Of a DNA stretch of 64,000 nucleotides, positions 21,301 to 30,300 are shown one piece after another. Position numbers and translations under genes: made by a program. Where the stretch lies: positions 4,092,001 to 4,156,000 of the forward strand of contig OZ024765.1 of the NCBI GenBank assembly GCA_964016885.1, written 5' to 3'. The notes beneath the pieces are model-generated. The model worked only from the letters and a program-made list of their open reading frames with translations. It was not told the origin of the DNA and did no database searches. Every line of letters begins with the position of its first letter. Positions within the stretch are counted from its first letter, which is position 1. Source of the stretch: Eledone cirrhosa. Lineage: Eukaryota.

Positions 21301-24300
21301 GTTTGTAGAGTAGCTGTGGTCAGTTAACTATAGCTCTGTTCACATTGAAAGGATGGTATGGTGGTGGTGGTTAGGGTTAGCTACAGCTCTGTTCTTGTTG
21401 AAAGGATGGTATAATGGTATGTAGTGTGGTAGTGGTAGGTTAACCACAGCTCTGTTGTCATTGAAAGGATGTATGATGGTATGTTGTGTAGTAGTGGTTG
21501 GTTAACCACAGCTCTGTTGCCATTGAAAGAATATCATACAGACCATAATGGTATGTAGTGTGGCACTGCCCCTCCCACCCTACAGAGGCCAAACCACCTG
21601 GGTGATTACTTAAAAAAAGAATGGAAAAACATAAATGTTATTATTTGACTTGGCAAAACCTTCAGAGAAGCTCTGGCGTATAGGTGATTAGTTGCTTTAA
21701 GATATGGGGCAAAAAACATAATAAAGGATATTATTTGACTTGACAAAACGTTCAGAGAAGCTCTGGCGTATAGGTGATTAATTGCTTTGCTTACCTTTAG
21801 CAAACGTACTGACCAGTGTGGCAAAATTGGAGATTAGATTGAGGCTTGAGAAGTCATCTATGTCTGTTAGTTCCAGTGTTCTCATCAGAGATTGCAGACG
21901 TTCACTGCAGAACCTGGTAATATGGAGAGAACCAGAAGGTATGACAGACATTTATGAGAGAAAAATTTTGGTAAATTTATAGAAGACTTTTCCCATACTC
22001 CCCTAAATGATTTCAGTGGGAAATAATTATTTTTCCTTGTTTTTTTTTTTCATGTGCTACCAATTAAACTTAGCACTGAATATGCCGCAAAGGACTTTCT
22101 TTAATCGATCGACAAGATCTCAAACCTCATTCGCTTACCAAGTGGGGTGGAACTTGTCAAATTGGATCAAGGAAACAATGTTTCCATTCGTCTTCCCATT
22201 GTTGATACTATCTACCAGTCACAACTCCTGGTAGATGGAGCAACATGAAATAAAGTGTGAAATCAAGGACATAAGATATCACCCAGTCCGGGAATCTAAC
22301 TTGCAACCTCACAATTACAAATCCAGGTTTCTAACCACTAAGGCAGTGATTCCCAACGTGGGGTGCACGCCCCACAGGGGAGAAATTTTGAGAAATAGTT
22401 GCCAGCCTTGTAGGATTGGTGACATATGAATACAAATGGCCGCTTCTGCCCAGCAGTAGTGCCTTTTTTTAAACTAGCTTAGAGTTGCAGCCTGGATGTT
22501 GATAGACCAACAGCTTGTAACTCGCTTTGCCACTGTTTTTAATTTTTCTCTCCAACATGGAGAGTATTTTGTTAGACGGCTTTCAGAGATTTATCGTTTA
22601 TCCGTCAACTTATTTTACCGAATATTCCAATCCCGGATGAAACATTTTTATCCTTCTTACAACCAGCTTTGGACATTTTACCAACTTTAATAGAGATAGT
22701 TAGTAAGGATAAATTAGTGGCTGTCTCGCTACATTTTTAGCCTACCTAAAACCATTTATTTCACTAACATCTTCACACAGAAAACCTTGCTGCACACATC
22801 TTGTAATGTGTTCAAACCAATTAAAAATAAATTAAATTTATATAAAAACTACACTATGCCTTCTGATATATTTTTTGAACCATTGGAACACTTCTTCAAC
22901 ATCTCCATCTTCCTAAAGTGACTATCTTGCTAAAAAGTGATAATGCCTACTAAAATTTAAAAGTGATATAATACGACCAAACTTCTTGTTGGCCTAATTT
23001 TTAGCTTTGTTTAATTAAAGGATTTCTACTTTATATTACAGTAATTACACTTTTACAAAACTCAGTTTGTTTTTATATGAAAGGGGAACATAAACATTTT
23101 TTAGATGCTGAGGTGGGGCATGGAGCAAAAAAGGTTGGGAACCACTGCACCAGGCCATAAACTATAGCAACAGCAACCCAATGAAGCCTACCTGAGTGGC
23201 TTTCGGTCAATACAAACTTTCTGCGAGCAATCCTTGAGGAAGGACGGAGGACTCTCGGACACCACATGTTGGATACGCAGACGGGTTTTCAAGAATTCTA
23301 CAAAACGCTTCATGAACGCTAAAAAATGTTCCGCATTTCGAATGTTTCCAGGTACAGCTTCTGTAAAGTAGAGTATGGAATAGGTGGTAGTGGTGGTGGT
23401 GGGTGTAAAGTAGAGTATGGAATAGGTGGTAGTGGTGGTGGTGGGTGTAAAGTAGAGTATGGAATAGGTGGTAGTGGTGGTGGTGGGTGTAAAGTGGAGT
23501 ATGGAATAGGTGGTAGTGGTGGTGGTGGGTGTAAAGTGGAGTATGGAATAGGTGGTAGTGGTGGGAGTAGAGTAGTGTATGGAATAAGTGGTAGTGGTGG
23601 TGGTGGGTGTAAAGTAGAGTATGGAATAGGTGGTAGTGGTGGTGGTGGGTGTAAAGTAGAGTATGGAATAGGTGGTAGTGGTGGTGGTGGTGGGTGTAAA
23701 GTGGAGTATGGAATAGGTGGTAGTGGTGGTGGTGGGTGTAAAGTGGAGTATGGAATAGGTGGTAGTGGTGGTGGTGGGTGTAAAGTAGAGTATGGAATAG
23801 GTGGTAGTGGTGGTGGTGGTGGGTGTAAAGTGGAGTATGGAATAGGTGGTAGTGGTGGTGGTGGGTGTAAAGTAGAGTATGGAATAGGTGGTAGTGGTGG
23901 TGGTGGTGGGTGTAAAGTGGAGTATGGAATAGGTGGTAGTGGTGGTGGTGGGTGTAAAGTGGAGTATGGAATAGGTGGTAGTGGTGGGAGTAGAGTAGTG
24001 TATGGAATAAGTGGTAGTGGTGGTGGTGGGTGTAAAGTGGAGTATGGAATAGGTGGTAGTGGTGGGAGTAGAGTAGTGTATGGAATAAGTGGTAGTGGTG
24101 GTGGTGGGTGTAAAGTGGAGTATGGAATAGGTGGTAGTGGTGGGAGTAGAGTAGTGTATGGAATAAGTGGTAGTGGTGGTGGTGGGTGTAAAGTGGAGTA
24201 TGGAATAGGTGGTAGTGGTGGTGGTGGGAGTAGAGTAGTGTATGGAATAAGTGGTAGTGGTGGTGGTGGGTGTAAAGTAGAGTATGGAATAGGTGGTAGT

Positions 24301-27300: not shown

Positions 27301-30300
27301 ATAGGTGGTAGTGGTGGTGGTGGGTGTAAAGTAGAGTATGGAATAGGTGGTAGTGGTGGTGGTGGGTGTAAAGTGGAGTATGGAATAGGTGGTAGTGGTG
27401 GTGGTGGGTGTAAAGTAGAGTATGGAATAGGTGGTAGTGGTGGTGGTGGTGGGTGTAAAGTGGAGTATGGAATAGGTGGTAGTGGTGGTGGTGGGTGTAA
27501 AGTAGAGTATGGAATAGGTGGTAGTGGTGGTGGTGGGTGTAAAGTGGAGTATGGAATAGGTGGTAGTGGTGGTGGTGGGTGTAAAGTGGAGTATGGAATA
27601 GGTGGTAGTGGTGGTGGTGGGTGTAAAGTGGAGTATGGAATAGGTGGTAGTGGTGGGAGTAGAGTAGTGTATGGAATAAGTGGTGGTGGGTGTAAAGTGG
27701 AGTATGGAATAGGTGGTAGTGGTGGTGGTGGGTGTAAAGTAGAGTATGGAATAGGTGGTAGTGGTGGTGGTGGGTGTAAAGTGGAGTATGGAATAGGTGG
27801 TAGTGGTGGTGGTGGGTGTAAAGTGGAGTATGGAATAGGTGGTAGTGGTGGGAGTAGAGTAGTGTATGGAATAAGTGGTGGTGGGTGTAAAGTGGAGTAT
27901 GGAATAGGTGGTAGTGGTGGTGGTGGGTGTAAAGTAGAGTATGGAATAGGTGGTAGTGGTGGGAGTAGAGTAGTGTATGGAATAAGTGGTGGTGGGTGTA
28001 AAGTGGAGTATGGAATAGGTGGTAGTGGTGGTGGTGGGTGTAAAGTAGAGTATGGAATAGGTGGTAGTGGTGGGAGTAGAGTAGTGTATGGAATAAGTGG
28101 TGGTGGGTGTAAAGTAGAGTATGGAATAGGTGGTAGTGGTGGTGGTGGGTGTAAAGTAGAGTATGGAATAGGTGGTAGTGGTGGGAGTAGAGTAGTGTAT
28201 GGAATAAGTGGTGGTGGGTGTAAAGTAGAGTATGGAATAGGTGGTAGTGGTGGGAGTAGAGTAGTGTATGGAATAAGTGGTGGTGGGTGTAAAGTAGAGT
28301 ATGGAATAGGTGTTAGTGGTGGTGGTGGGAGTAGTGTATGGAATAGTGGGAGTAGAGTGGAGTATGACTGTGACAGTTGTGTGTGTGCAGCAGTAAGATG
28401 CACCACTGATGCAGTTGTGTATATACAGCAGTAAGATGCACCACTGATGCAGTTGTGTATATACAGCAGTAAGATGCACCACTGATGCAGTTGAGTATAC
28501 AGCAATAAGATGTACCACTGATGCAGTTGAGTATACAGCAGTAAGATGCAGCAATGTGCATTGCTGTTACCTTGAAGAATTTCAGTCGGAATCACTGCAA
28601 AGAAAGAAAAAAAATGAAAGAATGGTTAGTTACAGGAAACATCAATGGTGAGAGAAATAAATTAACCCTTTAGTTAATTTCGACGGCTATTTCTGGACAA
28701 GAAATACCCGTCGACGGCTATTTCTAGTCCAGAAATACCCGGCGAAACGGCTTGAGCTCTGCCGCCGGGGTCATACTTGCTCCTATATATATATATATAT
28801 ATATATATATATATATATATATATATATATATATATATATATATATATATATATGTAGGAGGTGAGTAATATTGTAGAACAATAAAACTATGCATATTTC
28901 CTTCTTCTTTATTTTTCCTATTTTTTCTTCTCTTCTCTTATATTTTCGTCATATGTTGACTGGACACTTTCTTGTTCACAAGTGTTTTAGGCCTCATGTT
29001 ACCTTATTTTATCTGATGAGAACACAATTTTTGTCTCAGGATGATGTTGTTTTTGAAATGCGCATAATAAAATATATGAAACTTTTTTAACCATCTTTTA
29101 ATTTCTTCTTTATATATATATATACATATATATATAAAGGATCAACTGACTTTCGTCAAATCGGACCAAAGAAAGTGTTTTCGTCGGTCTTTCCAGTTGC
29201 TAGTACTATCTATCGGTCACAACTCTAGGTAGAAGGAGCAACGTGAAATAAAGTGTCTTGCTCAAAGACATAACACATCCAATTCTTTAACCACTCAGCC
29301 ACACGCCTTATATATATATATATTTATATCTGTATTTTTAACCGTTGGTCAATCAATGATAAACATTGATTGCCAGATAAATTAATTATGGAGATATAAA
29401 AGATACAGAAGCGAAAACCAACCCAAACCAAACAGTGAGTGTGTTTTTTTATTATTTCTGGCAATATTATAACAATATGACCCTCCCCAAATATGTGTAT
29501 ATATATATATGTATATATATATATATATATGTATATATATATATATATATGTGTATATTTATATATATATATGTGTATATATACATATATACATGTGTAT
29601 ATATACATATATATATATGCGTATATATACATATATATATGTGTATATATACATATATGTGTATATATATATATATATACATATACATACACATATATGT
29701 ATACACACACATATATATATATATCTAGGGCGGGTAAAATTCCCGAGATCCATGGACGAGTTCTCTCCAGCGATCTCTGTCCCTCATCATCGCTGCCATG
29801 TCCTGCGTCTCCAAGAGACCAGTGTCTGTCCTTAGGGCATCAACATACATTAACCTTGGTCTTCCTCTTCCAGTGTGTCCATGTAGGGGCTCCCACACTA
29901 TATATATCATCATCATCATTTTACGTCCGCTTTTCCCTGCTTGCAAGGGTGGGACGGGTCTTATTCAGCACAGCATCTCTCCACTCGTCACGGTCCTTCG
30001 TCATCTCCACCGTGAGCTTCAATGATCTGAGGTCTGTTCTCACTACCTCCGCCCATGTTTTTCGTGGTCTACCTCTACCACGTCTTCCTTCAACTGGCAT
30101 TTCCTGCACTTCTTCACCCATCGGTCATCCTCCATGCGCATCACATGTCCATACCACCTCAGTCTCCTCTCCCGTACACTACATTCTATCCCTCTCAGAC
30201 ACAGTTTCTCTCTCAACACATTTACACTGCACATCCAACGGAGCATGCTTGCCTCATTTCTCTCCAGCCGTCACATATCCTCCACAGTTGCTGCCCATGT

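Follow-up and report, generated by a model that had tools for sequence, protein, structure and literature searches.

Tandem repeats built from the splice signals of their own gene are known from amphioxus, where the mirage minisatellites of Adh3 and of the globin genes BflGb6 and BflGb9 place tandem copies of the gene's own splice-site region inside an intron, beside the true exon; they evolve in concert with diverged edge units, and regular splicing is apparently unaffected (PMC3087553; for this and all further papers cited by PMC number, statements refer to the part of the published text that was available). Similarly, the 37-bp variable number tandem repeat (VNTR) in intron 7 of human F7 is a minisatellite anchored on a splice site, in which the signals are reiterated while the authentic site is used (PMC1557585). 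Long AG-free zones are a feature of distant-branch-point exons such as PTB exon 11 and those of nPTB, GABBR1 and HTR4, with a branch motif and a pyrimidine tract near the 5′ end of the zone, and the longest zones named in the available text measure 381 and 438 nt (PMC1431707). Here we analyze a 64,000-nt stretch of the genome of Eledone cirrhosa (contig OZ024765.1, positions 4,092,001 to 4,156,000; hereafter the window), in which intron 12 of the XPD/ERCC2 gene is filled by a 5-kb array of 42-nt units lacking G in the pre-mRNA and running up to the acceptor of exon 13. We consider it probable that this stretch is a neutral, ordinary intronic minisatellite, grown from a G-free seed and spliced at a weak, probably non-consensus proximal branch site.

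An exact base count of the plus strand between 23361 and 28367 gave G 2429, T 1429, A 1148 and C 1. The sole C is position 23361, which on the minus strand is the G of the exon 13 acceptor; another C does not appear until 28368, leaving 23362-28367 without any. The C-free run on the plus strand is 5,006 nt long, and the minus-strand pre-mRNA of XPD/ERCC2 intron 12 is without G there and therefore free of AG and GU, confirming what the original prediction had read by eye from the letters. Elsewhere in the window the longest C-free gaps measure 229 nt, a gap that crosses a run of N, and 162 nt. A G-free length of 5,006 nt is far above chance for random sequence, yet it is one unit multiplied, and the 5 kb do not count as independent trials. 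The RNA of the array is 48.5% C. Intron 12 holds seven AG, six within its first 203 nt plus the acceptor, and its AG-free zone measures 5,009 nt, whereas the gene's 22 other acceptors that were placed correctly have zones of 19-80 nt (one misplaced row, exon 7, was excluded from the counts). The description of the intron as an extreme AG-exclusion zone is thus accurate.

The G-free part of intron 12 (23362..28367, minus strand) was resolved as a 42-nt minisatellite by base count, repeat period, unit typing and the tandem joints found in contigs of sequencing runs X2 and X3. Repeat period analysis gave 121 copies, and cutting at a 9-nt anchor gave 122 units of 16 types. Each unit is built from a pyrimidine-rich tract followed by a run of CAC/TAC triplets. 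The units had been described as sharing one tract, which is true of 47 of them; 53 carry a one-base T/C variant and the remaining 22 are more diverged. The unit repeats the acceptor's own pyrimidine tract with its boundary one base before the G of the AG, and no unit holds the acceptor G or any exon base. Only the terminal partial unit (23361..23382, minus strand) combines the tract with the authentic CAG acceptor of exon 13, as evidenced by unit typing and by the exon 12-13 junction in a contig of run X4, and this agrees with the original prediction. All of the 100 matches of the 21-nt tract in the 3-Gb genome fall in this array, which therefore was amplified in place. The proposal that the pyrimidine-tract region was multiplied locally more than 100 times with the AG left out is consistent with these 122 units, each stopping one base before the G.

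Its head-to-tail units of tens of bases, together with a locus-specific occurrence and interspersed variants, are features of an intronic minisatellite of the VNTR type. Unit types are interspersed in non-periodic and higher-order patterns, and higher-order repeats local to the array occur near its 5′ end (111 nt) and near its 3′ end (78 nt). Such interspersed variants with higher-order repeats at the ends are what a minisatellite would show if it turned over through slippage and unequal exchange. The two commonest unit types, one T/C position apart, account for 77 of the 122 units (39 and 38 copies) and no more than 10 columns vary in the unit alignment, so the array appears recent and homogenized. 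A G-quadruplex on the template strand is at best a marginal candidate for the driver of expansion, with a G4Hunter-type mean of 0.93 and a maximum of 1.36. A dispersed satellite family was ruled out, as besides the locus only a weak CAC/TAC mosaic on C1 was recovered (of 399 candidates, 40 were scored) and copies of the exact tract are confined to the array. Two G-free sequences of similar build, a CAC/TAC mosaic of 1,116 nt and an array of 375 nt, lie on another chromosome at L030:3693-5270 (G000:C1:434041693-434043268), a region found via similarity and not by random sampling.

The array does not directly follow the micro-exon upstream, as first described. It lies in the intron that follows this exon but begins about 220 nt past the exon, behind a separate 38-nt repeat of about five copies (28374..28569, minus strand) that starts just past the donor of the 24-nt exon and, according to repeat and AG counts, contains AG. 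Intron 12 is almost wholly tandem repeat, and before the 38-nt and 42-nt expansions it was probably short.

The host gene is XPD/ERCC2 on the minus strand. Its best protein database match is P0001, which carries the name XPD of Octopus vulgaris and is identical to the translated frame at 705 of 758 residues. We located 24 exons with AG/GT ends that yield an open frame, which identifies the gene as a full-length, intact homolog; the exon numbering presumes one short first exon outside these 24. Exon 13 (23192..23360, minus strand) is 169 nt long and corresponds to residues 318-372 of XPD in solved TFIIH structures. In the gene model, intron 12 extends over 5,210 nt (28570-23361, minus strand) from the 24-nt micro-exon 12 (28571..28594, minus strand), whose residues are conserved in other animals and which is present in the X4 contig. 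This exon is preceded by its own T-rich tract and by CTAAC at -32. It is one of two very short exons in the gene, the other being the 30-nt exon at 11514-11543. The human XPD gene has 23 exons, and some introns of the 24-exon gene described here may be lineage-specific. Tandem repeats make up 17,642 of the 37,337 intron nucleotides of the gene (47%; window 3307-42921). Among them are several copies of a 48/49-nt family, which is also found in flanking DNA, as in a 3.1-kb array downstream.

Contigs from further sequencing runs bear on whether the array is real. Those of runs X2 and X3 carry the head-to-tail 42-nt joint at a word depth of 143-479, whereas in the sister run X1 the contigs of single-copy flanks reach 4.6-5.5; contig word depth is a rough guide only, and the sample of X1-X3 may be the assembled one. 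In these same-sample runs no contig bridges the junction of exon 13 and the array, as would be the case if a short repeat had been inflated to 5 kb during assembly. Given the depth of the joints and the sixteen unit types in non-periodic, higher-order patterns, we regard such an artefact as extremely unlikely. Contigs of run X6 covered only dispersed repeats.

Evidence of splicing across the intron comes from run X4, which has the same species label and derives from another sample. It has no RNA record and was taken as transcript-derived since its contigs cover exons alone and join them. In one X4 contig, the sequence beyond exon 13 continues with 30 letters identical to exon 12 together with the end of exon 11. 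This exon 11-12-13 join means that the terminal AG is used and micro-exon 12 is included in at least one transcript contig. A form skipping exon 12 was not seen among the X4 contigs, although contigs drop rare variants.

These contigs also bear on a possible regulatory role. A C/CA-rich, single-stranded RNA could bind poly(C)-, CA- or pyrimidine-binding proteins and, depending on array length, tune how often the in-frame 24-nt exon 12 is included. The high C content of the RNA and a predicted lack of structure at its 3′ end would suit such an element, and hnRNP K/E, hnRNP L and PTB have binding preferences for RNA of this kind. Human tandem repeats do affect splicing, in one case, NARS2, by a longer branch-to-acceptor distance (PMC10078293). 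Against this, the array appears recent and, judging by the only relative available, unshared; the residues that exon 12 contributes to an essential helicase are conserved; the single contig seen includes the exon; and the skipped form was not encountered. A regulatory element is therefore very unlikely. Both NARS2 and the CUL4A VNTR (as cited in PMC12776774) resemble the XPD array in being intronic repeats near a 3′ splice site whose length could alter the distance from branch point to AG, but their splicing effect was measured, whereas the XPD array is known from its sequence (PMC10078293, PMC12776774).

The relative is represented by a contig of run X5, which aligns from exon 13 through the last 40 nt of the intron. 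Among the differences listed for it (17 of 21), this part of the intron shows one substitution and three small indels, and the CAC-rich make-up is kept. There is no 42-nt tandem joint in this contig, which ends 7 nt past the aligned part. As the relative shares the CAC-rich acceptor flank and shows no such joint, comparison of the two sequences suggests that the G-poor seed is older than the array. At window position 23341, within exon 13, both X4 and the relative read G where the plus strand of the window has A, probably an allele.

Taken as a neutral minisatellite, the array most likely arose as follows. A G-free, CAC/TAC-rich stretch beside the acceptor tract would have been duplicated with its boundary just before the G, and a recent expansion by slippage and unequal exchange would have raised it to about 120 copies. 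It likely lacks G only since the seed had none and few mutations have accumulated. The acceptor is probably defined from the exon side with branching near -27. The internal tracts lead nowhere else, as the true acceptor is the first AG met downstream of each. Even branching inside the array would still reach the right AG, and the array would therefore be cheap to tolerate, which is a consequence of the sequence and not shown as the reason for it.

The original prediction went further and suggested that splicing selects against G within the satellite. We aligned the 15 full unit types and took the expected spectrum from 131 changes in 11 other arrays of the window, polarized by the majority base and subject to some alignment noise. 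The alignment contains 10 variant columns. For the 42-nt unit, 26% of substitutions are predicted to give G and 4.7% to give AG, the latter needing a transversion. With 10, 7 and 4 events, the probability of seeing no new G is 0.049, 0.12 and 0.30, respectively; for no new AG it is 0.62-0.83 over the same span from 10 to 4 events. As judged from the alignment, ten events would be a generous count: four columns are CAC/TAC swaps that slippage can make, three move as one block and one looks like an effect of deletion alignment. Moreover, splicing should disfavor AG and not G as such. The comparison of substitutions among units thus depends on how events are counted; it is without power for selection, and P = 0.049 leaves a weak depletion of G possible. 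The expansion is recent and has left too few substitutions to judge selection against G. This is the circumstance under which the original prediction had expected its own suggestion to fall, and selection against G or AG is not supported.

In its defensible form, the same idea would have splicing act on which duplications survive. Only those without AG, either through its omission or through a G-to-C loss, would have been tolerated, and variants creating AG would have been purged. Such a filter would account for a unit that ends exactly one base short of the G, and the lack of changes to G at the most generous count points the same way, although the AG-specific probabilities are uninformative. 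Other arrays of the gene argue against it. Five of them end 26-54 nt from an acceptor; the fifth, an AT/AC microsatellite, has 5 sense AG per kb, but the other four carry 40-78 per kb next to acceptors of an intact-frame XPD, showing that AG is tolerated near acceptors in this gene. An internal control is the 4-kb minisatellite of 77/88-nt units in intron 14 (17340..21371, minus strand), which contains 248 sense AG (192 of them YAG) and ends 34 nt before the acceptor. This minisatellite is also CAC/CAT-rich, with diverged older units at 21375-21529. Amphioxus offers a parallel, as many mirage repeats keep AG/GT and reportedly leave regular splicing undisturbed (PMC3087553).

In order to place the array in the genome we surveyed 10-kb pieces, 120 in all, taken at even spacing from five small chromosomes (1,199,600 nt, both strands), a sample and not a genome-wide count. 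It contained 100 G-free tracts of at least 250 nt, 28 of at least 500 nt and 7 of at least 1 kb. An AG terminated 26 of the 90 scorable long tracts (29%) and 6,642 of 18,222 short ones (36%). Acceptor-like ends, scored with a crude matrix trained on the 24 acceptors of the XPD gene, were found for 2 of the 90 and for 1,214 of the 18,222. Within this 1.2-Mb sample, long G-free tracts are therefore not enriched for acceptor-like ends, which also speaks against a survival filter. One tract is of the kind such a filter would predict, a second long G-free array on the same chromosome that ends in an acceptor-like candidate site. At L035:6672-9159 (G000:C26:6006672-6009159, minus strand), a 2,488-nt G-free array of CAC type leads into a short pyrimidine tract with CAG, a single-copy 29-nt stretch and a donor-like site. 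If the 29-nt stretch is an exon, this would be a second long G-free array abutting an acceptor; it is a candidate only, to which no gene is assigned. Weighing these observations, we consider a survival filter unlikely.

The branch site of intron 12 was approached by motif scan. The best candidate is probably the C at -27, with an A at -46 as the alternative. This putative proximal site (23386..23392, minus strand) fits 5 of 6 U2-pairing positions and has C at the branch position; the heptamer with C at that position occurs 118 times in intron 12, the last being the one at -27. Human lariats include cases of C-branching within the canonical motif (PMC5378181). A strict branch consensus lies within 60 nt at 9 of the 22 other XPD acceptors, and 13 are without one. 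The only consensus branch motif in intron 12 (28312..28318, minus strand; CTAAC at 28316-28312) matches by sequence in the 5′-most unit, where its branch A, position 28313, would be at -4953. It stands 56 nt past the last upstream AG and precedes the same pyrimidine tract as the real acceptor, and the C at -27 is the homolog of its branch A. The last 301 nt of the intron are predicted to be fully unpaired (0.0 kcal/mol), so no fold would shorten the distance from branch point to AG. RNA structure looping out the array is unlikely, as G-free RNA can form only A-U pairs and these 301 nt gave none.

This arrangement raises the possibility of a displaced branch point. The ancestral CTAAC would have stayed in the 5′-most unit while C-variant copies were inserted behind it, and branching at -4953, or in any internal unit, would be followed by a first AG about 5 kb on across unstructured RNA. 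The single A-branch motif with a 5/6 U2 match in the first unit, its position after the last AG and before the tract, the C at the homologous position of the last full unit and the absence of predicted pairing all fit this, as does the layout of distant-branch-point exons (PMC1431707). However, a chance C-to-A change would create the motif with P = 0.10-0.24 over 4-10 events, and edge units are known to escape homogenization (PMC3087553). Whether the distal A form is ancestral and was carried upstream as the C-form copies multiplied, or is a chance C-to-A change in an edge unit, is about even. In addition, the longest zones named in the available account of distant branch points fall far below 5 kb (PMC1431707), the removal of distal branch points mattered only modestly when a proximal one was present (PMC5378181), and most other XPD acceptors also do without the strict motif. 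Use of the distal site is thus highly improbable.

Several observations nevertheless weigh against the neutral minisatellite. At the most generous count none of 10 variant columns changes to G, with P = 0.049. The unit ends precisely one base ahead of the G, and from a single locus a survival filter cannot be told from chance. None of the tracts sampled over 1.2 Mb is as long as 5 kb; most long G-free tracts are AT/AC microsatellites, only one of the six listed of at least 1 kb being C-rich, and the longest (L035, 2,488 nt, CAC-rich) has an acceptor-like end, after which comes a 29-nt exon-like stretch. The sole consensus branch motif of the intron lies at -4953, where a distant branch point would be expected. 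Furthermore, the splicing evidence is a single contig from another sample than the one to which the array length of the assembly applies, and the early end of the X5 contig, 7 nt beyond the alignment, leaves absence of the array from the relative unproven.

Compared with the described systems, the XPD array resembles mirage repeats but is not one, since its units contain no exon sequence. Mirages cross the exon-intron boundary and many keep AG/GT, whereas the XPD unit stops one base before the G, and there are 122 copies here compared with 3-6 at BflGb6 (PMC3087553). The F7 VNTR repeats a donor with complete pseudo-sites, while the XPD array repeats an acceptor tract without the essential AG (PMC1557585). 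Zones of distant-branch-point exons comprise hundreds of nucleotides of unique, often conserved sequence tied to alternative splicing, in contrast to a 5-kb, apparently recent tandem array (PMC1431707). Long G-free intronic RNA is not new, as the giant introns of Drosophila kl-3 contain a transcribed (AATAT)n satellite without G that is far larger, at megabase scale; unlike the XPD array it is a simple 5-nt, heterochromatic repeat that is not derived from an acceptor (PMC6508621). In the literature covered, which was partial and excluded supplements that possibly list longer zones, we found no account of this locus, of an octopus intron minisatellite or of a kilobase AG-free zone made by tandem repeat.

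Elsewhere in the window, putative remains of reverse-transcriptase-type retroelements occur at 45922-46827, 55727-56524 and 15992-16473, some of them amplified as 80-nt tandem arrays. Outside the window, L051 (G000:C26:5961500-5965800, plus strand) contains three or more well-scoring exon candidates, which may resemble BBS9.

On the most likely reading the array matters little: it is a further intronic minisatellite of a gene in which tandem repeats account for 47% of the intron sequence, and it serves as a caution that the exclusion of a base from a young array reflects the seed and not selection. If branching did take place at -4953, the AG-exclusion zone would be about ten times the longest ones named in the available text of PMC1431707, and the intron would be a natural substrate for measuring the reach of 3′ splice-site scanning. 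With a consensus motif at -4953, its C-variant at -27 and about 120 near-identical tracts without AG between them, the locus would offer a ready-made test of branch choice tied to exon definition versus scanning on the kilobase scale.

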